Part shown: positions 36,181-63,070 of the stretch, piece by piece | How positions within the stretch are numbered: position 1 is the first letter of the stretch | Layout of the letters: each line of letters opens with the position of its first letter | DNA from: Eledone cirrhosa | Lineage: Eukaryota | Assembly (NCBI GenBank): GCA_964016885.1 | Contig: OZ024752.1 | Span: forward strand, 36,890,001 to 36,954,000 | Length of the DNA: 64,000 nucleotides | Direction of reading: 5' to 3' | Program-made: the position numbers and the translations under genes | Notes under the pieces: model-generated | Told to the model about the DNA's origin: nothing | Seen by the model: the letters and a program-made list of their open reading frames with translations, nothing else | Database searches by the model: none

Positions 36181-36382
36181 TGTACATGTACATTCCTGGA
36201 ACTCTTCCCTCTTACTTTCCATTTCTGTTTCTTTTTAATCCCTACTTTTCTCATTTCTTTGCACAATTTTTCTGTATTCTTTTAGATGAAACTGCTTAAA
36301 GTTGTGATGTTTCTATTTGTTCATTAAATCAACAATTTTTTTTCTTAGGTACATTAAAGGAAAGAAAACTGAAAGAAAGCAG

Positions 36383-36458
36383 ATGAGTTCAGCAACCCCC
36401 CACTTGTGTATTTTTTCTCTCATTTATGTTTTGATGTATATATTGCCAATATCAACAG
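36383..36458 (+). CDS. Uncharacterised secreted or membrane glycoprotein (gene 2), signal-peptide exon MSSATPHLCIFSLIYVLMYILPIST
   Basis: Acceptor ttttcttag| before 36349, ATG at 36383, hydrophobic core, donor ACAG|GTAAGT (phase 1). The frame is also open back to the acceptor, so an upstream start cannot be excluded. Confidence 0.72.
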
Positions 36459-37839
36459 GTAAGTTCAAGTTTAAAGACTAACTATACCATTTATTGCTTT
36501 GATTAAGATATTGACGATTTAGTATTGGTCCAGACCACAATGGTGGCTTAATAATTTTCTTGTGATCATAGCAAGAAGTGTGGAAATTAGATTCATCAGC
36601 TTGCTAAACTATAAATTGAAATTATTTTATTTGGAAGAAGCATGTGACATAACTGGAAAAAAGGAAGGAACCTTGTAGGAGCTGGTTTAGGGAGTTATAA
36701 CTAAATACCCAGGTACTGGGCCTGAACACAATGATGACATCACAGAATTCTGTAATGTTTCATTTAGCTTGAAAACTGTTATTGGAAAATTGTTTCTGAT
36801 TTAGGCCCAAGGCCAACAATTTTTGGGGGAGGGTAAAGTCGATTAAATCGACCCAGTGCATTACTGGTACTTTATTTTATCAACCCCTGTAAGGGTGAAA
36901 GGCAAAGCTAACCTCGGCGGGATTTGAACTTAGAACATAAAGGACCGTAACTCTATGCCACAAAACATGTTGTCTGATTATAATTGTTTCTACTTTTGGC
37001 ACAATGCCAGCAATTACCCAGTGCATTACTGGTACTTTATTTTATCAACCCCTGTAAGGGTGAAAGGCAAAGCTAACCTCGGCGGGATTTGAACTCAGAA
37101 TGGCAAGGGCCATAACTCTATGCATCAAAGCATGGCGTACAACCCTCTACCGATACTGCCAATCCACCATATTGTCTGATTATAATATTAATAAAAACTA
37201 TAATCCATGGGCATTTTGTAATCTCTTGCCTGTGACTGCCCTCTGGTTCCTCTCCACAGCCTTGGTGTCCACTCTGTCACGCTAGTAGTCCACCTGTTGT
37301 CTCTGAAACGAGAGACATGGCTAGCCCATCTATGTTTGCCCTTCTTGATAGTCTTGATTATGTCTGTTACACCAGTCTGCTGTCAACTCCAGGTGTTGCT
37401 CTTCCTGTCATGTAAAGTAATGCTGAATATGATTTGCCCTATTTTACATATGTTGGGTCACTGCAGTGGTGGTGTTTGAGTGCCTGTGGCTCACTTCCAT
37501 TAGTCATCATTAGCAGAACATATTCATTAAGCATTTAGCCAGAATTCACTCACCCTTTTCTGTTCAAACTGGCTGTAAATGGCCATTCATACTCATGTTA
37601 AGGTATTGTTCTCAAAATAAATAACATCAAAATCTCATAGATTCAATATTATGTGAGATAATTATGTGAGGTAAAGTGTTTACCACAAAAATATAATTGT
37701 AAATACAGAGTAATGTAAATGCTAAAGGGTTAAGCAGCATTCTCTTAGTTTTAATTGTTGACGTGGGACTTCTAACGAGAGAGAGTGAGTAATGGGGTTT
37801 ACTAGTTAAGACTAATAAGACCAGCTTAGTACTTGATAC

Positions 37840-38073
37840 TTAACCCTTTCATGACTGCATTTCTAATGAAGTGCACTCTATTTTGATTAGTTAATGTAGA
37901 ATTTTGAGTGATTTATTAAGATTATTAATTATTTCTTTACTAAGATAGTAACTTAATGTTAAGTTCTTATATAAAATTATGTTGGAAGATTTAAATTTAA
38001 ATTTGAAACCTTTAAAATCGGTGGTTTTATTTCATTGAACCAGAGCTAGTTTGGATGGTAACTAAAGGGTTAA
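37840..38073. mobile_element. TTAA-flanked MITE (second piggyBac-type family), the single-unit progenitor of the 62-bp array at 41761-42500
   Basis: TTAACCCTTT...AAAGGGTTAA ends. Contains one copy of agttcttatataaaattatgttggaagatt. Confidence 0.6.
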
Positions 38074-38349
38074 GATAATAGAGAGTAGGTAGTATAACGT
38101 GTCTCTGCCTGATGACTGTACCATATCGACAACAAGCCAGCCACTCACATGTGCATGTATATATGTATATTTGTGTGCGTATTTTGTATATAATCATACA
38201 TAAAGATTTACCAAAAAAAGTACTTAATATATGTCAGTGGAACATATTTATTTTTTCTATTTTTACTGGAAGAAATTATTCCCACATACACACAACATTG
38301 AAATTTCTTGAATGTAACTAATAACATTCTTTGTTTTATTCTCTTTCAG

Positions 38350-38364
38350 CTGTTTGCGAAATAT
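38350..38364 (+). CDS. Gene 2 microexon 1 (15 nt, phase 1-1; AVCEI)
   Basis: ttttattctctttcag|CTGTTTGCGAAATAT|gtgagt: strong acceptor and donor, length a multiple of 3, in frame. Confidence 0.62.
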
Positions 38365-38489
38365 GTGAGTTAAATAAATTTACACCTACATTATTGTACA
38401 GAAGCATCTAACTGCTTCACAAGCTTCCCTTGCTTACCATTTTTTCTTTATTTTTCTTTTTATGCTTATTTTACCTCCCATAGACCTTA

Positions 38490-38825
38490 CCTATTTAAGT
38501 CTATCTTGTTTTTTATTCCCAACTGTAAGAAGTACTAGATACTTATCCCTAGTCTGTCATCGCTTACTAGCTCTATACAGACGTTTAAATTGATTTTTAG
38601 TTTTATATTCACTTATCTCTGTCTATCTTGTTTTTTTTTTATTTCCCAACTGTAAGAAGTACTAGATACTTCCCCTAGTCTGTTATGGCTTACTAGCTCT
38701 ATACGGACGTTTAAAATGATTTTAATTTTAATTCTTATTTTTATATTCCCTTATCTCTGGATATCTCTGTCTTGTTTTTTTATTTCTCAACTGTAAGAAG
38801 TACAAAATATTCCCCCTAGTCTAAA
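38490..38825. repeat. About 2.5 degenerate ~125-140 bp tandem copies in the intron after microexon 1
   Basis: tcttgtttttt...caactgtaagaagtac...ccctagtct occurs three times. Confidence 0.7.
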
Positions 38826-39940
38826 CACGTCTTCTGCAGTCACTGCCCATGTTTCACTACCATGCAGCATCGCACTTCGCACACAGCCATCATAATGTCG
38901 TCCTTTTGTACATAGGGAGAAACCTTTTGTTTTTGTTTTCTACAATGGGTCTCTCCTCAGCAAAAGGCGTATTGTAGAAGGCTTGTGTGCAAATGGCAAT
39001 GCTAGATGGTGGTGAGAGCTTGCTTGGCTTTGTATATGGTGGACTTACAGAGATTGGAAAGAAATGAGGCAAGCATGCTTCAATGGATGTCTAAAATAAC
39101 AACAACAACAACAACAACAATAATGCCAATATATTTTATTTTGTCATTTTGTTTTTCCATTTCAGAAGGGATAATTTACTTCCCCCTCAACTGTCTCTTT
39201 CACAACCACACTCCATTAGAACCTTTAGTCTTTCTCTATTGCTTTTCAAAATTCTTCTTTCAAGACAAGCAGACAAACTTTCATGCTTATTATATAGACT
39301 GGCATCCAATTAATTTTTACTACACTGCAAATAAAGAACATTTTATAATGATGTGTGTATAATCACTCTTGCTTAGCCTGGCAGCTGTTCTCATCTTGTT
39401 CTCTGATGATGATAAAAAAATAGTATATAAATTAAATAATCAAAATAAATCTATTTATATAAAAACAAAACACATTATTAAAGGAAATGAAAAGAAGAAA
39501 GGGAAAAATGATTTATTGAAAAAAAAAAAAATTTAGTGGTTAGACATTAATTAAAAAAACACGTACTCTTCTACTCTTCCTTATTATTAATTAGTTAATT
39601 ATTCATAATGATTAAAGGTGCAATAGATAATTATGGAAACACCATTATGTTTACTAAAATATCATCATTTTCATTTTAACGTCCTCTTTCCCTGCTAGCA
39701 AGGATTGGACGGGTCTACATAGACCAAGTCAGTACTGAAGCAGAGCCACTGATCCCAGCTTATGTACAGTTTCATGTTCCACCAAATGCATAAGAGAGGT
39801 TGTCCTGTCTTTGACACGATTGAAGGTCCTCCCAACCCTTTGTTCGGCAAGTTTTCTATGGCTGGGTGCCCTTCTTATCACCAACCACTTTATAGTGTGT
39901 ACTGGGTGTGTTTATTGTATACAACATTTGAAAACTTCAA

Positions 39941-40266
39941 GAGAGAGATCCAGCAAAAGGTAATTCATGTTTAGGGCCTGCTTTGAGAGAGATCCAGCAA
40001 ATGGTAATTCAGGTTTAGGGCCAGCTTTGAGAGAGATCCAGCAAATGGTAATTCATGTTTAAGGCCTGCTTTGAGAGAGATCCAGCAAATGCTAATTCAG
40101 GTTTAGGGCCAGCTTTGAGAGAGATCCAGCAAAAGGTAATTCAGGTTTAGGGCCTGCTTTGAGAGAGATCCAGCAAATGGTAATTCAGGTTTAGGGCCAG
40201 CTTTGAGAGAGATCCAGCAAAAGGTAATTCATGTTTAGGGCCTGCTTTGAGAGAGATCCAGCAAAA
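39941..40266. repeat. 44-bp minisatellite, about 7.4 copies
   Basis: gagagagatccagcaaatggtaattcaggtttagggcctgcttt at 39941, 39985 and onward. Confidence 0.92.
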
Positions 40267-40617
40267 GAAAGAAGGTTGGAAGTTCTTTCCCTGTTTTTTT
40301 TGTTTTTTTTTTTTAAATTCGAAGGCTACATGCCTAGAAGAAATCTGTTGTATTCAGACTTGGAGAGGAGATAGGCTCTGATAGGTTTCTAAAAACTGTC
40401 CTAGAAACGTTGTATGTCAATACAGTGCCCCTGCAACCCCCTCAGGAGTTATGGAACTAGAAACTGGGTTGTGAAATAAATACTGTAATAAATTTATTTT
40501 GTTGAAGAATTTAATTTTTCTTATTTATTCTTTTCTATATGCTGTCTTTAAAAATGTGTTCGTTTTTGTGGGAATTTCTTTATAAATAATGAAATTCTTT
40601 GTTTCAATCTCTTCCAG

Positions 40618-40635
40618 CACGCGAAAATTGTAATG
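40618..40635 (+). CDS. Gene 2 microexon 2 (18 nt, phase 1-1; SRENCN)
   Basis: tttcaatctcttccag|CACGCGAAAATTGTAATG|gtaagt. Flanking intron sequence is similar to that of microexon 1. Confidence 0.65.
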
Positions 40636-41760
40636 GTAAGTTAAATAAATTTATCCCTTACATTATTGTACATGAAACTATATAATTCTTTTCTCTCAAT
40701 TCTTTCTGTCATCAAGTCAATGAAAGGAGAAAAAAAGCCAACAATATACTGTGTTACTTCTCAAACCATTGGGCTTTTAACAAATGTTTGGCTTCACAAT
40801 TTTTTTCAACCTTTAATGAATACAATCTCTCCACACACATTCTCCATTTATCAAAACCAGGTCACCATTCTGAATTTTCGAAATGGAATTCATTATGTAT
40901 ATATATTTTACAAGCTATACAACTACATCAACAGGTTCTTTAGATCCTGCTATTAAATTATATTTTCCAGTTTAACACTTTAGCATTTAAACTGGCCATA
41001 TTCGGTCAGAATTCTCTCCTCTCTTTCTGTTCAAACCAGCTGTAACCAACCGCTCATACTTATGTTAAGGTATTGTTCTCAAAATAAATAATATAAAAAT
41101 CTCATGGATTTGATATTATGTGAGATAAAACCTTTATCATGAAAATATAATTGTAAATATAGAGTACTGTAAATACTAAAGGGTTAAGAATTCTATCTTT
41201 CAAACATTGTACAAAATTTAGAATATAATCATCAAAAATGTCTAAAACATTTATAAATGAATGCATTTATTCAAATCTGATGATTCCCTCAATTGCTCAA
41301 CAAAAGGGAATTTATACACTATAAAATCGTTTCCTCAATATTGTTTGAAGGTTTATGATCTAGTGGTTTGGGTGTTATGTTTGGCCATAAGGTTGTGGGT
41401 TTGATTCCCAAACCAAGTTACATGTTATACCCTTGAGCAAGGCATTTCATTTCATGTACGCCCACCATACAACAACAACCTAAGACTAGAATACATGATA
41501 CTCCAATAATAAGATTATTGAAAAATTGATAATTTTGAAATGCTGGGTAAAAATCATTGCTCATCTCTGATATAACCTTGATCCATGTACCAGTTCCACC
41601 ACCCTTTCTTTACAGAAATTGCAAACTATTTTTAAACATCTATAATATTTTTCTCTTTAATCCTTTCATGATTGTATTTTCTTATCAAATATTTTCTATT
41701 TTAATTAATTAATGAAGAATTTTGAGAGATTTAGTAAAATTATTAATTATTTCTTTACTA

Positions 41761-42500
41761 AGTAACTTAATGTGAAGTTCTTATATAAAATTATGTTGGG
41801 AGATTTTAACTTAAATTGGAAAGTAACTTAATATGAGGTTCTTATATAAAATTATGTTGGGAGATTTTAACTTAAATTGGAATAATAAATTAATTTAAGG
41901 TTCTTATATAAAATTATGTTGGGAGATTTTAACTTAAATTGGAATAATAATTTAATTTAAGGTTCTTATATAAAATTATGTTGGGAGATTTTAACTTAAA
42001 TTGGAATAATAACTTAATTTAAGGTTCTTATATAAAATTATGTTGGGAGATTTTAACTTAAATTGGAATAATAACTTAATTTAAGGTTCTTATATAAAAT
42101 TATGTTGGGAGATTTTAACTTAAATTGGAATAATAACTTAATTTAAGGTTCTTATATAAAATTATGTTGGGAGATTTTAACTTAAATTGGAATAATAACT
42201 TAATTTAAGGTTCTTAAATAAAATTATGTTAGGAGATTTTAACTTAAATTGGAATAATAACTTAATTTAAGGTTCTTAAATAAAATTATGTTAGGAGATT
42301 TTAACTTAAATTGGAATAATAACTTAATTTAAGGTTCTTATATAAAATTATGTTGGGAGATTTTAACTTAAATTGGAATAATAACTTAATTTAAGGTTCT
42401 TAAATAAAATTATGTTAGGAGATTTTAACTTAAATTGGAAAGTAACTTAATGTGAGGTTCTTATATAAAATTATGCTGGAAGATCTTAATTTAAATTGGA
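41761..42500. repeat. 61/62-bp minisatellite, about 12 copies, inside a MITE (about 41658-42564) ending about 40 nt before a gene 2 acceptor
   Basis: ggttcttatataaaattatgttgggagattttaacttaaattggaataataacttaatttaa repeats. The flanks match 37840-38073. Confidence 0.9.
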
Positions 42501-42603
42501 AACCTTGAAATTGGGTGTCTTTATTTCATAGAACCAGAGCCAATTTTGGTAACAGAACAGTTAAACATCACAAAATATTTCATGTTATATTCTCCTTTTT
42601 CAG

Positions 42604-42768
42604 AATATTTTTCTTCAATATCCTGTCAACTAAAGTTTGCAGCGTCTAAAAAATGTGCAGTCAAAGTTGAATTTGATGATAAACCTAAAGGCTTTGAACA
42701 TAATAGGTTTGATTTCAACGAACTAAATCTGACAAATCCCATTAAGTTCAATGTTACGGTCTACTTTG
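42604..42768 (+). CDS. Gene 2 exon (EYFSSISCQLKF...NPIKFNVTVYF)
   Basis: Acceptor ctcctttttcag|, donor TTTG|GTAAGA, 165 nt, phase 1-1. Same frame as ORF 42546..42815. Confidence 0.75.
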
Positions 42769-42817
42769 GTAAGATTTTAATAAGTAGTATTATTGAAAAA
42801 AAGCAACATAATTGATC

Positions 42818-42856
<39 letters not shown>

Positions 42857-42978
42857 GGGTGTCATCAGGAAAGGCATCAAGCTGTAAAATATTGTCTCAA
42901 AACATCCCATCCGACACCCACTTGCATGGAAAAGTGAATGTAATAATGATACACACACACACACATATATATATATAC

Positions 42979-43037
<59 letters not shown>

Positions 43038-43050
43038 CATATATACACAC

Positions 43051-43084
<34 letters not shown>

Positions 43085-43398
43085 GTCGATCGACTTTCGT
43101 CAAATCGGACCGAGGAAACAATGTTTCCGTTGGTCTTTCCAGTTGCTAATACTATCTATCGGTCGCAACTCCAGGTAGAAGGAGCAACATGAAATAAAGT
43201 GTCTTGCTCAAGGACATAACGCATCGCCCGGTCCAGGAATCGAACTCACAACCTCAAGATTGTGAATCCAATTCTCTAACCATTCAGCCACACGCCTTCA
43301 CTATATATATATATATATACACATACATATATATACACATACATATATATACACACACATATATATACACACACATATATACATATATACATACACAT

Positions 43399-43431
<33 letters not shown>

Positions 43432-44477
43432 CTGTAATACAGAATACCCGACCCCCCACGATAATACAGAATACCCCCCCCCCACTGGTACAAGCCGAAG
43501 CTGAAGCATATAGACAATATGCCCCCACACCCTCCCACTGCTAAGTGGTCGTGTCGTGGAGGTGTCAAGGCAAAAAAGCACCCAGCCCACACTGTAAAGT
43601 GGATGTGTAGGCGCCACGGAAAAAAAGCACCCAGCACTCACTGTAAATGAGGTTGGTGTTAGGAAGGGCATCCAGCTGTAGAAATCAAGCCAGAATCAGT
43701 TCCAGTATGAGCAAATAAGCAAGACAAAGTCAGCTGACCGGACATCATCATCATCATCATCATCATCATCGTTTAACGTCCATCTTCCACGCTAGCATGG
43801 GTTAGACGGGAGTTGTCCCACTTGAGGCAAGGTTGGTCGGGTGACCGTGTCTTGCTCATATAGGACTATCTGGCAGGTTTTCTATGGCTGGATGCCCTTC
43901 CTAACACCAACCACATTTACAGTGTGGAACTGGGAACTTTTTACCGTGTTACCTACACGGCCACATTAGAGTGAGGACTGTGTGTTTTTTTGTCGTGACA
44001 CCTACACGATCTCGATCTCATTTATCTCATTTATTTGGACTGGATGTTGTGGTACCAACTTTACAGAGAGAGGGTGGTGTTGGTGGGAGTGGGAGGATAG
44101 GGTAGGAGTAGTGGATTGGGGGTGTATATTTGGTTGAGAGGTGCCTACTGACTGTAGGTTTTGTTTTGTACGTAGGCAAGGCGGGTCTTCTGTATTACTG
44201 CGTGGTGCCAAAGATCTCGGTCCAGTGACATTGTCTTAGAGAGGTGCACGTGTGTAAGATTGGAATTTATCAGATCGTCCCAGGTTTTTCTGGGTCTACC
44301 TACTCCGTAACTTCCATCAATTTTGATCGCCTTGCACTTTTTTATGCATCTGTAGTCTTTCATGCGCATCACGTGACCATACCAACTTAGTCTTACACAT
44401 ATATACATACATACATATACATATATATATATACATATATATATATATACACACATATACATCATCATCATCATTTT

Positions 44478-47400
44478 TCATCATCATCATCATTTTACGT
44501 CCGCTTTTCCCTGCTTGCAAGGGTGGGACAGGTCTTATTCAGCACAGCATCTCTCCACTCGTCACGGTCCCTCGTCATCTCCACCGTGAGCTTCAATGAT
44601 CTGAGGTCTGTTCTCACCACCTCCGCCCATGTTTTTCGTGGTCTACCTCTACCACGTCTTCCTTCAACTGGCATTTCCTGGCACTTCTTCACCCATCGGT
44701 CATCCTCCATGCACATCACATGTCCATACCACCTCAGTCTCCTCTCCCGTACACTACATTCTATCCCTCTCAGACACAGTTTCTCTCTCAACACATTTAT
44801 GCTGGGTCGTTCACGCACATTTACACTGCACATCCAACGGAGCATGCTTGCCTCATTTCTCTCCAGCCGTCGCATATCCTCTGCGGTTGCTGCCCATGTC
44901 CCACTACCATGCAGCATCGCGCTCCTCACACAGGCATCATACAACCGGCCTTTCGTACGCAGGGAGAAACCCTTCTTCGTCAACAGAGGAAGCAGCTCCC
45001 TAAACTTCTTCCAACCCGTCCTTATTCTAGATACTATGGCCTCGGAACACCCTCCTCCCATGCTAATCTGATCTCCTAGGTACCGGAAGCTATCCACCAC
45101 TTCTATAGCGCCCTCTCGCATTTGAAAAATGTGTCTATCAGTGCGACTTCTACTGTCTAATTTCCCTGTACATCTACTGCATACATATTTCTCCCTACCT
45201 GTTAGTTTGCCTGCTATCCCGCTACATCTCTTGTGTACCCAGGACCTGCATTGTGTGCATTTTATAGAATTTATGCCAGTTCCTTTTCTGCATATCGAAC
45301 ATGGCCATTTCCCTGACGGAATCAGGGTTTTGTCCTCTTTTCTACTCACCAACACTTTTGTCTTAGCTAGATTTACTCTCAGTCCTCTTGCTTCCAACTG
45401 CTGTTTCCATAGCCGGAATTTATTCTCTAGCTCCTCTACTGATTCTGCTATAAGAGCCAGATCGTCAGCATAGAGAAGTTCCCATGGACAGCCAGTCTTA
45501 AACTCCTCTGTTATGGCTTGGAGGACTATAATGAACAAGAGCGGGCTGAGGACCGAACCCTGATGTACTCCTACTTGTATCTGGAATTCCTCACTAAACT
45601 CCATTCCTACCCTGACCTTACTGAGAGTACCTCTGTACAAAGTTTGCACTGTCCTCACAAGCCATTCCTCAACACCTAGCTTCCTTAGGGACCACCAGAT
45701 GACAGATCGGGGTACCCTATCAAAGGCCTTCTCTAGGTCAACAAAGGCTAAGTATAGTGGCTTATTCTTCTCTAAGAACCTCTCTTGCATTTGTCTCGCC
45801 AAGAAGAGGGCATCTGTTGTTCTCTTCCCAGGCACAAAACCAAACTGCATCTCATCTAGTTTGACCCTTTCTCTAATTAGTTGTGCTAAAATCCTTTCTG
45901 CCACTTTCATAACCTGATCTATCAGTTTTATACCCCTATAATTGCTCCTCCCCAAAGCATCCCCTTTACCTTTGTAGCAATTTATGAGAATACTGCTGCA
46001 CCAGTCTTTGGGTATGACACCACCATATATAGCCTGATTGATGATGCGTGCAACCAGTTTAGTGCCTACGTCCCCTGATGCCTTCAGCATCTCAGCAACT
46101 ATTCCCGATGGTCCGGCCGCCTTACCATTTTTCATTTCCCTAATCGCCTCTTGGACCCTATATTCGTCAATCTCAATAGCTGGTCCCTCTGTCGGATCTA
46201 CCAAGGGTAATTTCTCTCTCTCCCATTCGTTCTCCACATTCATCAGTCTCTCATAATGACATTTCCAGGCCTCCTTTTTCTGGTCATTCGTGACACTAAG
46301 TACACCGGCATCATCCCGGACACATTTATCTCCAACAACATCCTGATTTGCATTGACACACTGCCTTGCAATGTGGAACACCGCACGCCTCTGATCTTCC
46401 CGTCGCAGAACATTGGCAAACCTCCTACTCTCTGCCTCCCTGTGTGCTAAGTACACCTGACGTTTAGCTTCTCTCTTAGTGGCTGTATATTCTTCCCTAC
46501 TCCCACCCTTTTTCCAAGCCTTCCATGCTAGTCTTTTGTCTCTAATAGCCTTATCTACTGTGCTGTTCCACCACCAGGTCACTCTCTGTCTGGTTGGAGC
46601 TCTGCTCCAGCCACAGGTTTCATCAGTAGCCTGCAGCAAGTTGTCACGTAAGAACTTCCAGTTATTATCTATGTCATACGTCTCTAAATCGTCTTCTTTT
46701 TCGTCATATACATCTTGAAGGGCTTTCCTAAATTTGTATTTTAGTGAAAGGTCTTTTAGCTTCCAGACCTTTCTTCTCCACACCTTCCTATATGTCTCAT
46801 TCCATCTCTTGCTTACTGAGATATCACTAACAACTAACCTATGCTGTGGGGGTACATTCTTCCCCAGGGTATGCCTTGGTATTAGACACTATCTGCCTGT
46901 CCCGCTGCCTAACTAGCAGGAAGTCAATCTGGCTTATGTGCTCACCAGATTTGTAGGTTATTAGGTGATTGGCAGGTTTCTGGAAGTTTGTGTTGCAAAT
47001 AGTCAATGTACTCGCATCACAAAATTCAAGAAGTCTCACTCCTTCTTCATTTCTTGAACCGTAACCGTGCCCAGCATGTACCCCAGTGTAACCATCCTGG
47101 AGCTGTCCAACATGACCATTGAAGTCTCCTGCTAGCATAACGATGTCTCCGTCCTCTGTCATTGTGGTTGTTTGCAAAAGTTGCTCATAAAAGCAGTCTT
47201 TCTCATCTTTGCCTAGGCCTGCTTGGGGAGCATAGACCGAGATGATTGTCAGTAGTCTCCTACCTACAACTAATCTAAGCTTAATTATTCGATTACTAAC
47301 TCAAACTACCTCTATTGTCTTATTGATCCATTTCTCAGACAGGAAAATGCCTACTCCCCCTAACCCATCATCCTTACCTACCCAGAATAGCTTATAGCTA

Positions 47401-47650
47401 AGACGCTTGCCTACGACTAGTCTCACAGAGGCACCTCTCCATCTCACCTCTTGCACACAGCACACACCCACCTGCCTTCTCTCCAGCATCTCCGCTATTT
47501 CAGCAGATCTACCTCTGAGAGTGCCAACATTAAGTGTTGCAACTCTGAGATGCGACGTCTTCATATTTTGTTGTTGTTCCTATGCTGTTTTGTTGCTGTG
47601 CTGATAAGCGTTTTGGCATTGATACACTGGTTGGATGCCCTTCCTAACAC
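44478..47650 (-). mobile_element. Near-full-length RTE-clade LINE (APE endonuclease + RT + PHD-like finger), inactivated by one stop and one frameshift, antisense in a gene 2 intron
   Basis: APE motifs ATLNVGTL, CVQEVRW, SVYAPQ, GDFNGHVG, SQIDF. RT motifs QFGF, FVDLEKAFD, GVHQGSVLSPLLF, YADD. In-frame TGA at 47301-47303 and a frameshift near 46850. (GAT)n tail. Confidence 0.95.
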
Positions 47651-47654
47651 CATA

Positions 47655-48632
47655 TATAGAAATAGTGGACAGCTTCCGTTACCTGGGTGACAAAATCAGC
47701 AGTGGGGGAGGGTGCTCTGAAAGTACAGTAGCTAGAGTCAGAACTGGATGGAAAAAGTTCAGAGAGCTTATACCACTATTAGCCGCTAAAGGGTTCTCCC
47801 TAAAAATGAAAGGCAGGCTGTATGATGCCTGCATACGAACAGCAATGTTACATGGCAGTGAGACCTGGGCATTGTGTGCAGAGGATATATGCAGACTGGA
47901 GAGGAACGAAGCTTGCATGCTCCGCTGGATGTGTAATAGTAATATACATGAACGGCAAAGCATAAGCAAGCTAAGGGAAAAATTAGAAATAAGAGGGATC
48001 AGATGTTGTTTACTCGAGAGAAGGCTACGTTGGTATGGTCACATGATGTGCATGAAAGACGACAGCTGTATAACAAAGTGCAGGGCAATAAAAATAGACA
48101 GTAGCCACGGAGTAGGCAGACCCAGAAAAACCTGGGACGACTTGATAAATTCCGACCTCACACACTTACATCTCTCCAAGACAATGTCACTGGACCGAGA
48201 GCTTTGGCGCTACACAGTAATAGAGAAGACCTGCCTTACCTAAGTACAAAGTGAAACCTACTACAGTCAGTAGGCACCTCTAACAAAATACACCCCCGTC
48301 CCACTACCCCGACATCAGCCACACCACCCCCTTTCAATGTGAAGTTATGTTGGTACCACAACATCCAGCCCGAAACAAATAAGGTCGTGTAGGTGTCACG
48401 ACAAAAAAACACAGTCCACGCTGTAATGTGGCCGTGTAGGCAACACGGTAAAAACTTCCCAGTCCACACTGTAAATGTGGTTGGTGTTAGGAAGGGCATC
48501 CAGCCGTAGAAAACCCGCCAGACAGTCCTATACGAGCAGGACAACCAATCTTGCTTCAAGTGGGAAAACACCCGTCCAAACCCATGCAAGCGTGGAATAT
48601 GGACGTTAAACGATGATGATGATGATGATGAT
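47655..48632 (+). mobile_element. 5'-truncated RTE LINE of the long-3'UTR subfamily, head-to-head with the full-length copy
   Basis: ORF 47635-48243 is nearly identical to ORF 17048-17626. Tail GGACGTTAAACGATGATG. Confidence 0.9.
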
Positions 48633-48684
48633 ATATATATATATATACATACACACATATATATATATATATACACACATATAC

Positions 48685-48755
<71 letters not shown>

Positions 48756-48816
48756 CATACACACATATATGTACACACACATATATATATATATATACAT
48801 ACACTCATACATATGT

Positions 48817-48888
<72 letters not shown>

Positions 48889-49073
48889 GTAAGTAAGACC
48901 CCGACGGCTGAGCTCAAGCCGTTTCGACGGCTAATTCTGTACGAATTAGCCGTCGAAACGGCTTGAGCTCAGCCGTCGGGGTCTTACTTACTCCTATTAC
49001 CCACTCTACTACCCTAAGTATTGAGTACTTTGGTGCGTTATGGTCCACCTGGTTCCTTACCACTTTTCCTTCG

Positions 49074-49127
<54 letters not shown>

Positions 49128-49267
49128 ATACAATCCAGTCCAGCAATTGAACCTATGACATTATGATCATAAGTCCAACTCCCTTGCCATTAAGTCATGC
49201 ACGTCTACTAATTTGTATCAGATGAAATAAAATAATTGTTTTACATAAGATTAATATTATTTTTCAG

Positions 49268-49440
49268 GAAAAACTAGTTGTTATGAGACATGCTGCTTGA
49301 AAAGAAACACTACTGAGAAATATCTTTGTTATAACAATAATTGTCAGAATAATATATTTTTCATTTTTCACGACAACACTATGAAAAATGAGACTTCTGA
49401 AAACATTTGTCTTTCTGGCAACCAGTTAGCCATCAAAAGG
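49268..49440 (+). CDS. Gene 2 exon (GKTSCYETCCLKRNTTEKYLCY...NQLAIKR)
   Basis: Acceptor tttttcag|, donor AAGG|GTGAGT, phase 1-0. Same frame as ORF 49297..49497. Confidence 0.75.
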
Positions 49441-50504
49441 GTGAGTGATATTTTTCACAATAAATGTATTTCAATCAAAGAAATTGTCAAAATGTAAATA
49501 AAACATATATGTGTTAACACCACATAAACACAATAGTTGTATATAACCCTTTAGCATTTACATTACTATATATTTACTATTGTATTTTCACAGTAAAGGC
49601 TTTATCTTATATGATATCTCACATAGTATCGAATCTATGAGATTTTGATATTATTTATTTTGATAACAATACCTTAACATCAGTATGAGTGGCTAGTTAC
49701 AGCCAGTTTGAACAGAAACAGAAGAGAGAATTCTGGTCGGATTCAGCCGGCTTAAATGCTAAAGGGTTAAAATGAGTAGATGTAAAAACAGTGCAGTTTG
49801 CACGCAAGTTACATGTATATGGCCTGGGCCAATACTGGCCGAAACCTATAAAAGTTATCTGAGGAGTATGAAAAAAGGATGTAGGTGTCACGACAAAAAA
49901 ACACACAGTCCGTGCTGTAATGTGGTTGGTGTTAGGAAGGGCATCCAGCCGTAGAAAACCTGCCAGATAGTCCTATACGAACGAGATACGGTCACCCAAC
50001 CAATCTTGCCTCAAGTGGGACAACTCCCTTCTAACCCATGCTAGCGTGGAAGATGGATGTTAAATGATGATGATGATGATGATGGAAGTATAAAACTGTT
50101 AAATTATATCATGTATTTTATTGTATCCCAGGTTTCGGGTTTTCTTAAAAAGGATATAACAGCAATGAATTGACAGAGTCGTTAAAATGTCAGATAGAAT
50201 GATTTGTGGTATTTGTTCTGGTTCTCTGTGAAGATCAACTTTGCTTTTCATCCTTTCAAGGTTGATATAAAAATACCAGTCTAGTACTGGGGTCGATTCT
50301 TGCTCCTTCTATATATCTTTACTCTTCTCTGAAAGAAATTTGCTGTATTCAGACCTGGAAAAGGGATGGGCTCCACCAGGCTAAAAAATACCCTAGAATT
50401 GCTGTATGTCAATATGGCACCCCTACATCTCCATCAGAAAAGTCATTGATGGGTAAAAATCTTATAAAATATTTGATTTCTTTTGGGGAGGGTAGGCCTT
50501 ACAG

Positions 50505-50622
50505 AAGAAAATACTAGAAAAGCCATTGATGAAAATGAATTTACGGAATGAAGTATACTTTAAAGATAAGATGAACATAAATAAAAATGAATCCTGTCAA
50601 GAAGATATGTGGCAGATAACAG
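50505..50622 (+). CDS. Gene 2 exon (KKILEKPLMK...NESCQEDMWQIT)
   Basis: Open frame with donor ACAG|GTAAGA. Its phase 0-1 exactly bridges the neighbouring exons. The acceptor ccttacag is weak, and an in-frame alternative AG lies 9 nt upstream. Confidence 0.65.
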
Positions 50623-51364
50623 GTAAGATAGTGTCTTTTTCATGTAGTTGCTTGACTTGTTAGAAATAGCAGCCAAAACTCCCTCATATCACACAATATG
50701 TTGCTTGACTTGATAGAAATAGCAACCAATACACTCCCTCATATAATATGGTAAAGAATAAAAGAATGCGGTGCCCCAGTATGGCCACAGTCTAATGACT
50801 GAAACCAGTAACAGAATAAAAGAACGTGGTGCCCCAGTATGGCCACAGTCTAATGACTGAAACAAGTAAAAGAATAATTATTCCCAAAACTCAACAGAAT
50901 GTGAAAATAGTTTTTTTGTGAATTCTTCTAAACTTTATATCATTATTTATTTATTTATAAGGCGGTGGATTGGCAGTATCGGTTGAGGGTCGGACGCCAT
51001 GCTTTGACGCATAGAGTTATAGCCCTTTCCATTCTGAGTTCAAATCCCGCCAAGGTTAACTTTGCCTTTCATCCTTACGGGGTCGATAAAATAAAGTACC
51101 AGTAATGTACTGAGTAATTGCTGGCCTTGTGCCAAAGGTAGAAACAATTATTTATTTATTTATTTATTTTATTTATTTTATTTATTTTATTTATTTTATT
51201 TATTTTATTTATTTTATTTATTTTATTTATTTTATTTATTTTATTTATTTTATTTATTTATTTTATTTATTTTTTTTATTTTATTTTTTTTAATTTAATT
51301 TTTTTATTTTATTTGTTTTTTTAAAATTTAATTAATTTATTTATTTTTATTTTTTATTTTTCAG

Positions 51365-51468
51365 ATTCCAATGTGGAGGATTGGAATTCATTTTTTTATG
51401 AAAATGTAACAAATTGTTTGTTAAGAACTAAAGACAGAATCAAGAAAAAGTATATTTTGGTCCTTAAA
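51365..51468 (+). CDS. Gene 2 exon (DSNVEDWNSFFYENVTNC...YILVLK)
   Basis: Long T-rich tract ending in tcag|, donor TAAA|GTAAGT, phase 1-0, open in the required frame. Confidence 0.72.
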
Positions 51469-52095
51469 GTAAGTAAAACTATTTTACATTTTACTATATC
51501 AACGGTAGTGGATTGGCAGTAGACTCGGTAGAGCATCAGACAATGTTTTGCAGCATAGAGTTACGGCCCTTTACGTTCTGAGTTCAAATCCCGTTGAGGT
51601 TAACTTTGCCTTTCATCCTAACGGAGTCGATAAAATAAAGTACCAGTGATGTACTGAGGTCGATTTAATCGACTTTCCCCTCCAACCAAAATTTTTGGTC
51701 TTGTGCCTAAAATCAGAAACCATTTTACAAAAACAGTTTTCAAGCTAAATGACACTATTAAAGGGTTCTTCTAACCCTCTGTTTGGTAAGTTTTCTACAG
51801 CTGGATACCCTTTCTAACACCAACCACTTTACAGTATTTACTGAGTGCTTTTATTGTGTAGATCACCAGCACTAGGGAGGCTGTTATGTCTTAGACACCT
51901 AGGGAGGCTGTTATGTCTTAGACACAATTAAATATACATAATTTTTTTCAGATTTTTGAACAAGTGTGGCACACAAATTCAGACATGTTTCGTGTTTCGG
52001 AGTTATTTTGGCTTCATCAGTAAAATATAATTTGATAGAAAAAAAAGGGATACTGACTAATTTTGTTCTTTTCTCATTGCATATTTTAAAATATA

Positions 52096-52818
52096 CAGGG
52101 TGCTTCAAAATATTAGATATCATTTGAGAGGTAAATATCCCAGAAAGTCTAAAACAGGGGGTGCCACGGGCAGCCCACAAGCCACAATCCAGCCTGCTAG
52201 ACCAGTAAGAGTGATCCGCGATGGCCATTTTTAATTTTTACCTTGCAGGCTTATTTAGAATTTTTTCGTAACTGAAATACAATTTTCTGTTAGTTGATCA
52301 ATCCTAAAGGGCTTCATTGATAGGGTTATGTGTGTTATTATTTCCAAGTTTCATTGCCAAGGTGGTGGATTGGCAGTATCGGTAGAGGGTCGGACGCCAT
52401 GCTTTGACGCAAAGCGTTACGGCCCTTTCCATTCTGAGTTCAAATCCCGCCGAGGTTAACTTTGCCTTTCATCCTTACGGGGTCGATAAAATAAAGTACC
52501 AGTAATACACTGGGTAATTGCTGGCCTTGTGCCAAAAGTAGAAACAATTATTTCCTAGTTTCATGTTATGGAAAGAAGTTGTGGTTTTCATTAGATTAAA
52601 TATTTTTGACAGTGACTGGCCCTAATAGTTGTACCAATGTTCAAAAGTGGCTCATCAATGGAATATGTTGCACACCCCTGCTCTAAGACAACAAGACTGA
52701 ACAGGCTTAAGGTTTATTCCTCAAAATTTGTCAACATTATAACACTAATTAACAATATATATTTTAATGTGACAACTTCAAGAACAGGCAATGATATGTG
52801 ATTTTTTGAAACATCCTG
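52096..52818. mobile_element. Tc1/mariner-type MITE with nested SINE
   Basis: TA|CAGGGTGCTTCAAAA...TTTTGAAACATCCTG|TA. The SINE at 52360-52550 has TSD ttatttcc(a/t)agtttcat. Confidence 0.65.
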
Positions 52819-53208
52819 TATATGAGTGGAGACACATGGCCTAGTGGTAAGAGTGTTGAACTTACGATTTTAATGTTGTGGGTTCAATTCCTAGACTGGT
52901 GTGTTTGTTGTGTTCTTGAGCAAAACACTTTATTTCATGTTGCTCCAGTATACTCAGTTGAAAAAGAGTTCCAGTAATAGATAGGGGTTTAACTCTGCAA
53001 AGGACTGGCCTCATACCCAGGTAGAAGTCATCTACTCTCAATCGCTTCACACTATGAAGCTGGGGATAAGTACCGGTATGACGAGCATCTTAGCTTGAGA
53101 CACACTCTAGACTAGACTACACTGTATATAAGTTAACAATATCAATTTAATATCAATTTAAAATGACGATATCAATTTAATTAATGATAAAAAACAATTT
53201 ATTTCCAG

Positions 53209-53263
53209 AAAAAAATTGAAGATAGGGAAATTTGGCATTTCCTTGTTGTTAAACCAGAACGAG
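53209..53263 (+). CDS. Gene 2 exon (KKIEDREIWHFLVVKPER), the last exon found in the window
   Basis: Acceptor atttatttccag|, phase 0 entry, donor CGAG|GTTTGT (weak, phase 1). Read-through gives GGT TTG TAA. Confidence 0.62.
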
Positions 53264-53362
53264 GTTTGTAATTTTATATTCATGGCTTTTTTTCTTCATG
53301 ATTGGGGTTTTTTGCAACTGTTTAATGATTATTTTCCAAGCTTACACTAGTTAGACTGGTGT

Positions 53363-56300
53363 ACAGGTGAGGTGAACATAGCGTACATGGGTTAGACAGG
53401 TGAGGTGAACATAGCGTACATGGGTTAGACAGGTGAGGTGAACATAGATTACATGGGTTAGACAGGTGAGGTGAACATAGCTTACATAGGTTAGACAGGT
53501 GAGGTGAACATAGCTTACATGGGTTAGACAGGTGAGGTGAACATAGCTTACATGGGTTAGACAGGTGAGGTGAACATAGCGTACATAGATTAGACAGGTG
53601 AGGTGAACATAGCTTACATGGGTTAGACAGGTGAGGTGAACATAGCGTACATGGGTTAGACAGGTGAGGTGAACATAGCTTACATAGGTTAGACAGGTGA
53701 GGTGAACATAGTTTACATGGGTTAGACAGGTGAGGTGAACATAGCTTACATAGGTTAGACAGGTGAGGTAAACATAGCTTACATAGGTTACACAGGTGAG
53801 GTGAACATAGTTTACATGGGTTAGACAGGTGAGGTGAACATAGCTTACATAGGTTAGACAGGTGTGGTGAACATAGCTTACATAGGTTAGACAGGTGAGG
53901 TGAACATAGCTTACATGGGTTAGACAGGTGAGGTGAACATAGTTTACATGGGTTAGACAGGTGAGGTGAACATAGCTTACATAGGTTAGACAGGTGAAAT
54001 GAACATAGCTTACATAGGTTAGACAGGTGAGGTGAACATAGCTTACATAGGTTAGACAGGTGAGGTGAACATAGCTTACATAGATTAGACAGGTGAGGTG
54101 AACATAGCTTACATGGGTTAGACAGGTGAGGTGAACATAGCTTACATAGGTTAGACAGGTGAGGTGAACATAGTTTACATGGGTTAGACAGGTGAGGTGA
54201 ACATAGCTTACATAGGTTAGACAGGTGAGGTGAACATAGCTTACATGGGTTAGACAGGTGAGGTGAACATAGCTTACATAGGTTAGACAGGTGAAATGAA
54301 CATAGCTTACATAGGTTAGACAGGTGAGGTGAACATAGCTTACATAGGTTAGACAGGTGAGGTGAACATAGCTTACATAGATTAGACAGGTGAGGTGAAC
54401 ATAGCTTACATGGGTTAGACAGGTGAGGTGAACATAGCTTACATAGGTTAGACAGGTGAGGTGAACATAGCTTACATAGGTTAGACAGGTGAGGTGAACA
54501 TAGCTTACATGGGTTAGACAGGTGAGGTGAACATAGCTTACATAGGTTAGACAGGTGAGGTGAACATAGCTTACATAGGTTAGACAGGTGAGGTGAACAT
54601 AGCTTACATGGGTTAGACAGGTGAGGTGAACATAGCTTACATAGGTTAGACAGGTGAGGTGAACATAGCTTACATAGATTAGACAGGTGAGCTGAACATA
54701 GCTTACATGGGTTAGACAGGTGAGGTGAACATAGCTTACATAGGTTAGACAGGTGAGGTGAACATAGCTTACATAGATTAGACAGGTGAAGTGAACATAG
54801 CTTACATAGATTAGACAGGTGAGCTGAACATAGCTTACATGGGTTAGACAGGTGAGGTGAACATAGCTTACATAGGTTAGACAGGTGAGGTGAACATAGC
54901 TTACATAGGTTAGACAGGTGAGGTGAACATAGCTTACATGGGTTAGACAGGTGAGGTGAACATAGCTTACATAGGTTAGACAGGTGAGGTGGACATAGCT
55001 TACATAGGTTAGACAGGTGAGGTGAACATAGCTTACATGGGTTAGACAGGTGAGGTGAACATAGCTTACATAGATTAGACAGGTGAAGTGAACATAGCTT
55101 ACATAGATTAGACAGGTGAGGTGAACATATCTTACATAGGTTAGACAGGTGAGGTGAACATAGCTTACATAGGTTAGACAGGTGAGGTGAACATAGCTTA
55201 CATAGGTTAGACAGGTGAGGTGAACATAGCTTACATGGGTTAGACAGGTGAGGTGAACATAGCTTACATAGGTTAGACAGGTGAGGTGAACATAGCTTAC
55301 ATGGGTTAGACAGGTGAGGTGAACATAGCTTACATAGGTTAGACAGGTGAGATGAACATAGCTTACATGGGTTAGACAGGGGAGGTGAACATAGCTTACA
55401 TGGGTTAGACAGGTGAGGTGAACATAGCTTACATGGGTTAGACAGGTGAGGTGAACATAGCTTACATGGGTTAGACAGGTGAGGTGAACATAGCTTACAT
55501 GGGTTAGACAGGTGAGGTGAACATAGCTTACATGGGTTAGACAGGTGAGGTGAACATAGCTTACATAGGTTAGACAGGTGAGGTGAACATAGATTACATG
55601 GGTTAGACAGGTGAGGTGAACATAGCTTACATGGGTTAGACAGGTGAGGTGAACATAGTTTACATGGGTTAGACAGGTGAGGTGAACATAGCTTACATGG
55701 GTTAGACAGGTGAGGTGAACATAGACAGGTGAGGTGAACAAAGCTTACATAGATTAGACAGGTGAGGTGAACATAGCTTACATAGATTAGACAGGTGAGG
55801 TGAACATAGCTTACATAGGTTAGACAGGTGAGGTGAACATAGACAGGTGAGGTGAACATAGCTTACATAGATTAGACAGGTGAGGTGAACATAGCTTACA
55901 TATGTTAGACAGGTGAGGTGAACATAGACAGGTGAGGTGAACATAGCTTACATAGATTAGACAGGTGAGGGGAACATAGCTTACATAGATTAGACAGGTG
56001 AGGTGAACATAGCTTACATAGGTTAGACAGGTGAGGTGAACATAGCTTACATAGGTTAGACAGGTGAGGTGAACATAGCTTACATAAGTTAGACAGGTGA
56101 GGTGAACATAGCTTACATAGGTTAGACAGGTGGATAGGTGAGGTGAACATAGCTTACATAGGTTAGACAGGTGAGGTGAACATAGCTTACATGGGTTAGA
56201 CAGGTGAGGTGAACATAGCGTACATGGGTAAGACAGGTGAGGTGAACATAGCTTACATAGGTTAGACAGGTGAGGTGAACATAGTTTACATGGGTTAGAC

Positions 56301-59300
56301 AGGTGAGGTGAACATAGCTTACATAGGTTAGACAGGTGAGGTGAACATAGCTTACATAGGTTAGACAGGTGAGGTGAACATAGTTTACATGGGTTAGACA
56401 GGTGAGGTGAACATAGCTTACATAGGTTAGACAGGTGTGGTGAACATAGCTTACATAGGTTAGACAGGTGAGGTGAACATAGCTTACATGGGTTAGACAG
56501 GTGAGGTGAACATAGTTTACATGGGTTAGACAGGTGAGGTGAACATAGCTTACATAGGTTAGACAGGTGAAATGAACATAGCTTACATAGGTTAGACAGG
56601 TGAGGTGAACATAGCTTACATAGGTTAGACAGGTGAGGTGAACATAGCTTACATAGATTAGACAGGTGAGGTGAACATAGCTTACATGGGTTAGACAGGT
56701 GAGGTGAACATAGCTTACATAGGTTAGACAGGTGAGGTGAACATAGTTTACATGGGTTAGACAGGTGAGGTGAACATAGCTTACATAGGTTAGACAGGTG
56801 AGGTGAACATAGCTTACATAGATTAGACAGGTGAGGTGAACATAGCTTACATAGGTTAGACAGGTGAGGTGAACATAGCTTACATAGGTTAGACAGGTGA
56901 GGTGAACATAGCTTACATAGATTAGACAGGTGAGGTGAACATAGCTTACATGGGTTAGACAGGTGAAGTGAACATAGCTTACATAGGTTAGACAGGTGAG
57001 GTGAACATAGCTTACATAGGTTAGACAGGTGAGGTGAACATAGCTTACATGGGTTAGACAGGTGAGGTGAACATAGCTTACATAGGTTAGACAGGTGAGG
57101 TGAACATAGCTTACATAGGTTAGACAGGTGAGGTGAACATAGCTTACATGGGTTAGACAGGTGAGGTGAACATAGATTACGTGGGTTAGACAGGTGAGGT
57201 GAACATAGCTTACATGGGTTAGACAGGTGAGGTGAACATAGCTTACATAGGTTAGACAGGTGAGGTGGACATAGCTTACATAGGTTAGACAGGTGAGGTG
57301 AACATAGCTTACATGGGTTAGACAGGTGAGGTGAACATAGATTACGTGGGTTAGACAGGTGAGGTGAACATAGCTTACATGGGTTAGACAGGTGAGGTGA
57401 ACATAGCTTACATGGGTTAGACAGGTGAGGTGAACATAGCTTACATGGGTTAGACAGGTGAGGTGAACATAGCTTACATGGGTTAGACAGGTGAGGTGAA
57501 CATAGCTTACATGGGTTAGACAGGTGAGGTGAACATAGCTTACATAGGTTAGACAGGTGAGGTGAACATAGATTACATGGGTTAGCCAGGTGAGGTGAAC
57601 ATAGCTTACATGGGTTAGACAGGTGAGGTGAACATAGACAGGTGAGGTGAACAAAGCTTACATAGATTAGACAGGTGAGGTGAACATAGCTTGCATAGAT
57701 TAGACAGGTGAGGTGAACATAGCTTACATAGGTTAGACAGGTGAGGTGAACATAGACAGGTGAGGTGAACATAGCTTACATAGATTAGACAGGTGAGGTG
57801 AACATAGCTTACATAGATTAGACAGGTGAGGTGAACATAGCTTACATAGGTTAGACAGGTGAGGTGAACATAGCTTACATGGGTTAGACAGGTGAGGTGA
57901 ACATAGCGTACATGGGTTAGACAGGTGAGGTGAACATAGCTTACATAGGTTAGACAGGTGAGGTGAACATAGTTTACATGGGTTAGACAGGTGAGGTGAA
58001 CATAGCTTACATAGGTTAGACAGGTGAGGTGAACATAGCTTACATAGGTTAGACAGGTGAGGTGAACATAGTTTACATGGGTTAGACAGGTGAGGTGAAC
58101 ATAGCTTACATAGGTTAGACAGGTGTGGTAAACATAGCTTACATAGGTTAGACAGGTGAGGTGAACATAGCTTACATGGGTTAGACAGGTGAGGTGAACA
58201 TAGTTTACATGGGTTAGACAGGTGAGGTGAACATAGCTTACATAGGTTAGACAGGTGAAATGAACATAGCTTACATAGGTTAGACAGGTGAGGTGAACAT
58301 AGCTTACATAGGTTAGACAGGTGAGGTGAACATAGCTTACATAGATTAGACAGGTGAGGTGAACATAGCTTACATGGGTTAGACAGGTGAGGTGAACATA
58401 GCTTACATAGGTTAGACAGGTGAGGTGAACATAGTTTACATGGGTTAGACAGGTGAGGTGAACATAGCTTACATAGGTTAGACAGGTGAGGTGAACATAG
58501 CTTACATGGGTTAGACAGGTGAGGTGAACATAGCTTACATAGGTTAGACAGGTGAAATGAACATAGCTTACATAGGTTAGACAGGTGAGGTGAACATAGC
58601 TTACATAGGTTAGACAGGTGAGGTGAACATAGCTTACATAGATTAGACAGGTGAGGTGAACATAGCTTACATGGGTTAGACAGGTGAGGTGAACATAGCT
58701 TACATAGGTTAGACAGGTGTGGTGAACATAGCTTACATAGGTTAGACAGGTGAGGTGAACATAGCTTACATGGGTTAGACAGGTGAGGTGAACATAGTTT
58801 ACATGGGTTAGACAGGTGAGGTGAACATAGCTTACATAGGTTAGACAGGTGAAATGAACATAGCTTACATAGGTTAGACAGGTGAGGTGAACATAGCTTA
58901 CATAGGTTAGACAGGTGAGGTGAACATAGCTTACATAGATTAGACAGGTGAGGTGAACATAGCTTACATGGGTTAGACAGGTGAGGTGAACATAGCTTAC
59001 ATAGGTTAGACAGGTGAAATGAACATAGCTTACATAGGTTAGACAGGTGAGGTGAACATAGCTTACATAGGTTAGACAGGTGAGGTGAACATAGCTTACA
59101 TAGATTAGACAGGTGAGGTGAACATAGCTTACATGGGTTAGACAGGTGAAGTGAACATAGCTTACATAGGTTAGACAGGTGAGGTGAACATAGCTTACAT
59201 AGGTTAGACAGGTGAGGTGAACATAGCTTACATGGGTTAGACAGGTGAGGTGAACATAGCTTACATAGGTTAGACAGGTGAGGTGAACATAGCTTACATA

Positions 59301-61520: not shown

Positions 61521-61697
61521 ACAGTTTCATTTGGTTAAAATCATTGACCGATGATTTTATGTTAACTGTATGAAACAGTGCTACTCCTGTAGGAGTAATT
61601 TACATCTGGAATTAATTATACACTCTCTCTAATGTAGTGAAAACCTTATCTAACTAGTTTTTTTTATGTTGCTTTATGGAGACCCCCCCTCTCTCTC

Positions 61698-61728
<31 letters not shown>

Positions 61729-61745
61729 ATATTTATATATATATT

Positions 61746-61818
<73 letters not shown>

Positions 61819-61819
61819 T

Positions 61820-61852
<33 letters not shown>

Positions 61853-61883
61853 TTATAAATATATATATATTTATATATATATT

Positions 61884-61944
<61 letters not shown>

Positions 61945-61945
61945 G

Positions 61946-61982
<37 letters not shown>

Positions 61983-62125
61983 GAATATATATATGTGTAT
62001 ATATATATGTATATATATATATATGTGTATATATATATGTATATATATATATATGTGTATATATATATGTATATATATATATGTATATTCAAGTCTATAT
62101 ATATATATATATGTATATATATATG

Positions 62126-62157
<32 letters not shown>

Positions 62158-62478
62158 TATACATATATATAAATAGGAGAAAGTCTGACACCGACGACAG
62201 AACTCAAGCCGTTTCGACGGCTATTTCAGTTCAGAAATAGCCGTCGAAACGCCTTGAGCTTTGCCGTCTGGGTCATACTTTCTCCTATTACCCACTCTGC
62301 TATCCTAAGTATTGAGTACTCTGGTGCGTTATGGTCCATCTGGTTCCTTACCATAACTCCTTCGTTATATATATATATATACATATATATATACACACAC
62401 ACACATATCTATATATATACGTATCATCATCATCATTATCATCATTTTACGTCCGCTTTTCCCTGCTTGAAAGGGTGG

Positions 62479-62522
<44 letters not shown>

Positions 62523-62547
62523 ATATATATATATATATATATACATA

Positions 62548-63070
62548 ATGTCAGGTCACCACTTGGTGCTACTGGTAACATGTATCCCAGTACAACCTGT
62601 CTCATGGTCGGGTCGTTGGCGACTAAACTGGCAACCCCACCAAGGTTTCTTGGTGAGGAGGGTGACTTTGGACATCCTGCAGGACTAAAAACAAAACCTG
62701 TCAAAGGGCAAAGGACCTCTTAAGAGTCAATGGCCATTCAAAATCACCGGGAGAGATGACCCCTTAGCCTTTGTCAAGGCAGAATTCTAGGAGAAGGAAA
62801 ACTCTGATATAACACCTGCAACCCTGATGGTATCCAATGATGTTGACTTGTTCTTCTTTTTGGTAAATATCATCTTGGTTAAGAGAGTGGGACTGGCTTT
62901 GTGCAGTGCTTTTGCTCACTATAAAAGCTTCACGGCACAGGCATTGCTTTATATCTGGAGATCTCTCTGCACTTGTCATCACATGGTACCATGGGCCCAG
63001 CACTGTGTGTCAGTAATTGTCACAGGTGTAGTGTTTGTACCAGAATTTTCAAGTCGCTGGCTGGACTAAA
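62548..63070 (+). mobile_element. Probable 5' region of a LINE (degenerate) containing an HDV-like fold candidate
   Basis: GC-richer island between microsatellite and an RTE tail, homologous to the repeats at 35590-35862. Confidence 0.35.

Follow-up and report, generated by a model that had tools for sequence, protein, structure and literature searches.

Eight exons of Eledone cirrhosa as the probable 5′ part of a 29-exon adhesion G protein-coupled receptor gene

To which gene do eight plus-strand exons in a 64-kb window of the Eledone cirrhosa genome belong? An earlier note, made from the sequence of this window, had joined them into a hidden, uncharacterised gene with a signal peptide, two microexons and a Cys-rich glycoprotein region. 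The window is the whole stretch analysed (64,000 nucleotides of contig OZ024752.1, from a source genome of 3.0 Gb). All coordinates are window coordinates (contig position = 36890000 + window coordinate), and positions past its end are given as continued window coordinates. We find that the eight exons very probably form the 5′ part of a gene predicted to have 29 exons and to encode an 843-residue adhesion G protein-coupled receptor (GPCR), likely the orthologue of an Octopus receptor annotated as ‘ADGRL4-like’.

All eight exons were located at the positions first proposed, each with AG/GT ends, and their phases (1,1,1,1,0,1,0,1) chain into 241 stop-free codons when the original acceptor of exon 6 is used. 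The joined exons hold 13 Cys, 12 of them downstream of the signal peptide, and six sequons, as counted in the earlier note. Six or more sequons were reached by 2.6% of 5000 shuffles, so that their number is only mildly above chance. The signal peptide is predicted from hydropathy and alignment: the hydrophobic N-terminus proposed as such aligns with the N-termini of the homologues. As an acceptor precedes exon 1, a non-coding exon probably lies upstream of it. In tblastn searches, exons 4–8 each match the O. bimaculoides homologue in collinear order, and exon 8 contains an 8-residue run identical across all four aligned sequences. Exons 1–3, whose shortness or divergence puts them out of reach of tblastn, are supported by their splice sites, their phase and the C-x6-C spacing in the multiple alignment. 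The mature N-terminal region aligned to the O. bimaculoides homologue with a score of 496, far above the mean of 42 and the maximum of 74 from 300 shuffles, which argues that the exon chain is more than chance. A chance assembly or a decayed pseudogene, to which the poor polypyrimidine tract of exon 6, the weak donor of exon 8 (by the ad hoc score used here for splice-site strength) and an N-terminal identity below 50% might point, is hardly credible given 843 open codons over 65 kb, the conservation of every Cys of the mature chain and the wide margin over the shuffle control.

The gene continues past the window, as the earlier note had expected. A search of 150 kb from window position 63001 onward with a simple splice-site score yielded 21 further coding exons (66667–101739, continued) that follow on in phase from the first eight. 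The resulting model comprises 29 coding exons over 65 kb, with 843 codons, one terminal stop and GT-AG ends at 28 of 28 introns. Its exon at 77868–77988 matches the Pfam GPS domain (E 1.7e-12; 48.1 bits, cut-off 22.5), preceded by approximately 500 residues with a hydrophobic stretch at the N-terminus. The seven-transmembrane (7TM) domain 7tm_2 was detected in three of three homologues (E 6e-35 to 1e-36), to which this gene is 78% identical in that part; a single 22-residue exon of this gene scored below the 7tm_2 cut-off on its own. With GPS/GAIN, 7tm_2, a long N-terminus bearing a predicted signal peptide and a cleavage motif, the predicted protein is by its sequence an adhesion GPCR.

The homologues were first retrieved by a search with the GPS exon, which returned two clusters named ‘adhesion G protein-coupled receptor L4’ or ‘L4-like’ from O. 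bimaculoides (XP_014769618.1 and XP_052823013.1), O. sinensis (XP_029634696.1) and O. vulgaris (CAI9721574.1); exon 5 by itself gave no match in a word-index protein search. In tblastn, the single proteins XP_014769618.1, XP_029634696.1 and CAI9721574.1 span, in order, the N-terminal exons as well as those for GAIN and 7TM, so that the match is collinear over the whole length and the architecture is the same. Identity amounts to 45–48% in the N-terminal domain, 53–55% in GAIN and 78% in the 7TM region and tail. Identity between the O. sinensis protein and its two Octopus counterparts is 87% and 98%; this gene has less in common with any of the three, so its genome is likely that of a more distantly related octopod. 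All 12 Cys of the mature chain are conserved in the homologues, including the C-x6-C pair contributed by the two microexons, the GPS/agonist motif is identical and the C-terminus is similar. Pfam finds GPS and 7tm_2 in three of three homologues and no other match over the cut-off. The earlier note had made its proposal depend in part on a conserved homologue in related species, and octopods supplied several. With homologues annotated in three Octopus species, the whole gene is neither uncharacterised nor lineage-specific as supposed; the description holds for its N-terminal domain only, which is seen in octopods. Within the Eledone genome, searched with single queries rather than profiles, each N-terminal exon has one convincing place; a second match on another contig was dismissed (E 0.65, with a stop). 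GPS motifs occur at at least ten places in this genome, only this one on its contig. A literature search that covered few subscription papers and excluded bioRxiv supplements found no paper devoted to the gene.

Could the eight exons instead be a separate gene for a secreted Cys-rich glycoprotein, or a soluble short isoform, with the downstream GPCR as its own transcription unit? An older O. bimaculoides annotation does list a 107-residue ‘uncharacterized protein’ and a 427-residue GPCR separately (UniRef A0A0L8HT67 and A0A0L8HT54); the GPCR half appears under its old accession in PMC6408891. The match in Argonauta hians is likewise a 150-residue partial model without GAIN, and intron 8 measures 13.4 kb. 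We nevertheless consider two separate genes or a soluble isoform very improbable, since the annotations of three species join both parts in one protein of 830–860 residues, in which the split O. bimaculoides models are contained (by eye). Exon 8 closes on a donor site rather than a stop, in a phase that fits exons 9 and 10. Beyond its N-terminus the protein has, by a hydropathy scan, no hydrophobic segment ahead of the first membrane helix, and the downstream part thus lacks a separate signal peptide. Of the ‘secreted protein or receptor ectodomain’ offered by the earlier note, the ectodomain is thus borne out by the GAIN/GPS and 7TM exons downstream and the secreted protein is not. The split annotation conveys the same impression as the earlier note, which was made from a window that cuts the gene.

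In our view these exons are almost certainly part of the receptor gene. Weighing against its assembly as modelled, the link from exon 8 to GAIN spans the 13.4-kb intron and two weakly conserved exons, the gene is known here from genomic sequence alone, and the homologues are predicted gene models. Exons 9 and 10 were picked by splice sites and phase; the second of them (67249–67265, continued) is only 17 nt long, runs from phase 1 to 0, has strong splice sites and joins the linker in frame to the GAIN exons. No exon-exon joint was seen among the 15 joints listed, with 3847 more besides; the contigs concerned (three runs, one sample) read through introns like genomic DNA and have no bearing on expression.

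Table 1. Exons and intron of the predicted receptor gene (window coordinates, continued past position 64000 where indicated).
Feature	Coordinates	Strand	Remarks
Exon 1	36349..36458	+	ATG at 36383; predicted signal peptide; two complete homologues align at their N-termini
Exon 2 (microexon)	38350..38364	+	15 nt; phase 1-1; one Cys, aligned with Cys30 of the homologues; strong splice sites
Exon 3 (microexon)	40618..40635	+	18 nt; phase 1-1; one Cys
Exon 4	42604..42768	+	N-terminal Cys-rich domain; tblastn E 4e-8; one own-genome match
Exon 5	49268..49440	+	Six Cys; tblastn E 1e-12; one own-genome match
Exon 6	50496..50622	+	Acceptor moved from 50505; tblastn E 1e-4
Exon 7	51365..51468	+	Coding; tblastn E 3e-6
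Exon 8	53209..53263	+	End of N-terminal domain; tblastn E 0.35, weak alone but collinear
Intron 8, first part	53264..64000	+	13.4 kb in full
Linker exons 9–10	66667–67265 (continued)	+	Least certain; 7/20 residues match the homologues
GAIN/GPS exons 11–18	68406–77988 (continued)	+	53–55% identity to homologues
7TM and tail exons 19–29	81815–101739 (continued)	+	78% identity to homologues

One boundary of the earlier exon chain required correction. The acceptor region of exon 6 is purine-rich and offers five in-frame AGs (50496, 50505, 50508, 50523 and 50571). Alignment to four of four homologues scored highest with 50496 (340/351/337/242, compared with 318/329/315/231 for 50505), and the Argonauta hians model GAB1597454.1 favours this site. 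On these comparisons 50496 is the better reading, which would extend the N-terminal part from the 241 codons reproduced above to 244. Alternative use of the in-frame AGs (within 50470–50571) would trim the ectodomain without a frameshift.

The two microexons of the earlier note stand, with strong splice sites and with Cys that form the conserved C-x6-C pair of the homologues. Their flanking intron sequences are alike, at 75% identity over 106 nt (E 5e-12), with 25 of 30 bases shared upstream. Among 378 exon pairs within the gene, the microexon pair has the best flank score, at 88 (next 48; mean 5, standard deviation 12), in a comparison whose control left out the two loci. This shared flanking sequence points to an origin of the two microexons by local duplication of one. 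The Octopus proteins carry 8 further residues with a third Cys at the corresponding spot, after the second microexon, and an extra Cys in the exon 4 region (Cys45 and Cys69 of XP_014769618.1); this gene lacks both the segment and the exon 4 Cys. Between exons 1 and 4 we found no third Cys microexon: of nine candidate phase-1 Cys mini-exons, only the two known ones have strong sites. Because both Cys are lost as a pair, the alignment suggests a Cys45–Cys69 disulfide in the Octopus protein that would be missing here. No paper on microexons in cephalopods or octopus was found in a literature search covering few subscription papers. Minisatellites occupy parts of the introns around the second microexon (41763–42501, 62 bp × 12; 39941–40265, 44 bp × 7.4).

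The N-terminal domain itself comprises approximately 220 Cys-rich residues with the six sequons. The earlier note recognised no domain in this region, and Pfam likewise gave no match over the cut-off on exons 4–7, on the N-terminal region of the homologues or on the Argonauta fragment. The N-terminal profile found no credible match among PDB sequences; its single hit at E 0.043, NTR2, was judged to be chance. A profile search of 1.84 billion representatives (E ≤ 0.001) recovered three proteins, namely the Octopus cluster, the partial Argonauta hians model and an unnamed 89-residue fragment, and a search with the N-terminal region of a homologue returned only the two Octopus clusters. The Argonauta hians protein (GAB1597454.1; hypothetical, partial, 150 residues, unnamed) matches exons 5–8 with a profile E value of 1e-34 and 57/132 identities, and its model includes neither GAIN nor 7TM. 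At this search sensitivity, and as far as the matches carry names, the domain appears restricted to octopods; diverged versions in squid or other molluscs are possible.

Its fold can be described only tentatively. Neighbours of immunoglobulin (Ig) type were found in the ESM Atlas by features at 0.81–0.83, below the bar of 0.9, and template-modelling (TM) scores of 0.46–0.60 to mostly Ig-like clusters were obtained for residues 140–262 from a low-confidence model. AlphaFold2 models of the domain reached a predicted local distance difference test (pLDDT) of 31.6 and 38.9, and Foldseek on the second gave no match at E ≤ 0.001, so that we draw no fold conclusion from them. These models place helices in part of residues 140–262 and thereby do not support the Ig reading, which we retain as a weak lead for the second half of the N-terminal region. 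A cytokine-receptor or fibronectin type III ectodomain had also been considered and was dropped once the GPS was found.

The relation of the receptor to known subfamilies is looser than its annotation implies. In the PDB, the O. bimaculoides homologue is matched best by ADGRL3 (E 7e-58, residues 317–789) rather than ADGRL4, followed by ADGRD1 and ADGRE5; its match to ADGRL4 has an E value of 7e-32. It can be aligned with the GAIN domain of both ADGRL3 and latrophilin-1. With vertebrate ADGRL (latrophilin/ELTD1) and ADGRE receptors this gene has GAIN and 7TM in common. EGF domains are expected N-terminally in ADGRL4, and lectin, olfactomedin and hormone-receptor domains in ADGRL1–3 (in part PMC6422961). 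In contrast to these vertebrate receptors, Pfam detected no lectin, olfactomedin, hormone-receptor or EGF domain in the N-terminal region of the homologues or in the exons. Latrophilin-like receptors of invertebrates lack one-to-one orthology with those of vertebrates (PMC6422961), and invertebrate receptors often have no one-to-one orthologue in a vertebrate subfamily (PMC6900090). For this reason, ‘L4’ would best be taken as a similarity label. The octopus-specific expanded adhesion GPCRs (group 3, PMC6408891) are likewise class B receptors with a GPS and an adhesion-type 7TM; unlike them, the homologue model Ocbimv22006741m is listed in group 0, as non-expanded (Table S2 of that paper).

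At the GPS the sequence is H-L|T with S-F-A-I-L-M after it, so that the tethered-agonist motif T-S-F-A-I-L-M is intact, and a Tyr exactly 33 residues before the catalytic His and a Gly before the Cys occur in this protein and in three of three homologues. According to PMC13062082, self-cleavage needs H-x-S/T, an aromatic residue stacking on the His (F803 to H836 in ADGRL1) and flexible flaps; an aromatic at that place supports cleavage, and ADGRL1 F803Y retains it. Both the H-x-S/T motif and the aromatic are present here, which makes autoproteolysis at the GPS likely. We think it probable that the receptor cleaves itself and signals via its tethered agonist. Published results weigh against this reading: H-x-S/T is not sufficient, ADGRB2 staying uncleaved despite its H-L-S, and the flaps matter; a Tyr in place of the Phe slows cleavage of the purified ectodomain (PMC13062082); and one adhesion GPCR has been reported to signal without its tethered agonist (PMC13322242). 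The ADGRB2 and Tyr results leave room for the same gene to encode a cleavage-resistant receptor, or one signalling without the tethered agonist, with adhesion or scaffolding as its main role. We consider this unlikely, though a serious candidate, as four of four octopod sequences retain His, Thr, the aromatic at H-33, Gly and the agonist motif.

A self-cleaving receptor of this kind would, by analogy with its family, enter the secretory pathway and be cut at its GPS, with both halves remaining together. The partner bound by its Cys-rich tip would sit in the matrix or on an adjacent cell, and binding or pulling would expose the tethered agonist, which would then switch on G-protein signalling via the 7TM domain. 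The C-terminal O. bimaculoides model Ocbimv22006741m is listed in Table S2 of PMC6408891 as class B with a Tau of 0.84 across 12 tissues. Its expression is highest in retina (0.36), followed by posterior salivary gland (0.21); we take these values as proportions, since their total is 1 and a calculation of this kind is described in the methods. A bolder proposal, which we regard as doubtful, is that the approximately 220 residues form an octopod-specific ligand-binding module, either a new fold or a diverged Ig pair, at whose tip Cys microexons duplicate or drop out and thereby retune the disulfides and the partner of a retina- and salivary-enriched receptor. Should the module turn out to have a new adhesion fold and to recognise a ligand present in retina or salivary gland, it would be relevant to research on adhesion GPCRs and on cephalopod senses.

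In itself this is an ordinary gene: one more octopod’s model of a known receptor type has been completed and one splice site corrected. Its remaining value lies in the unannotated, fast-evolving Cys-rich ectodomain module seen only in octopods, whose disulfide pairing is partly readable from paired Cys loss. The microexon pair is, moreover, a clean example of the likely birth of a microexon by local duplication.

Several further elements lie in the introns of the gene and around it. Intron 8 contains a satellite (53363–61504; 33-bp unit, 249 copies, 92% matches) that begins 100 bp past exon 8 and yields long spurious minus-strand open reading frames (ORFs). Intron 4 holds a minus-strand copy of a retrotransposon without long terminal repeats (44495–47579), with two short endonuclease ORFs and a 797-residue ORF bearing RVT_1 and a PHD finger; fragments resembling it occur at 15227–18099 and 47623–48243. 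Downstream on the plus strand, at about 114000–170000 (continued), lies a gene for a gamma-tubulin complex component, one exon of which matches GCP_C_terminal (E 4e-13) and which is a useful synteny marker. Upstream, also on the plus strand, we found a gene for an MRM3-like mitochondrial rRNA methyltransferase (9337–13401; Pfam MRM3-like_sub_bind E 1e-9, SpoU_methylase E 6e-13) with candidate exons at 9354–9598, 11427–11585 and 12821–13401. A plus-strand ORF at 3062–3487, without a Pfam match, is possibly its first exon. A minus-strand ORF of 187 residues (29110–29673), with no Pfam match at E 0.001, resembles a reverse-transcriptase fragment of a Penelope-type element.

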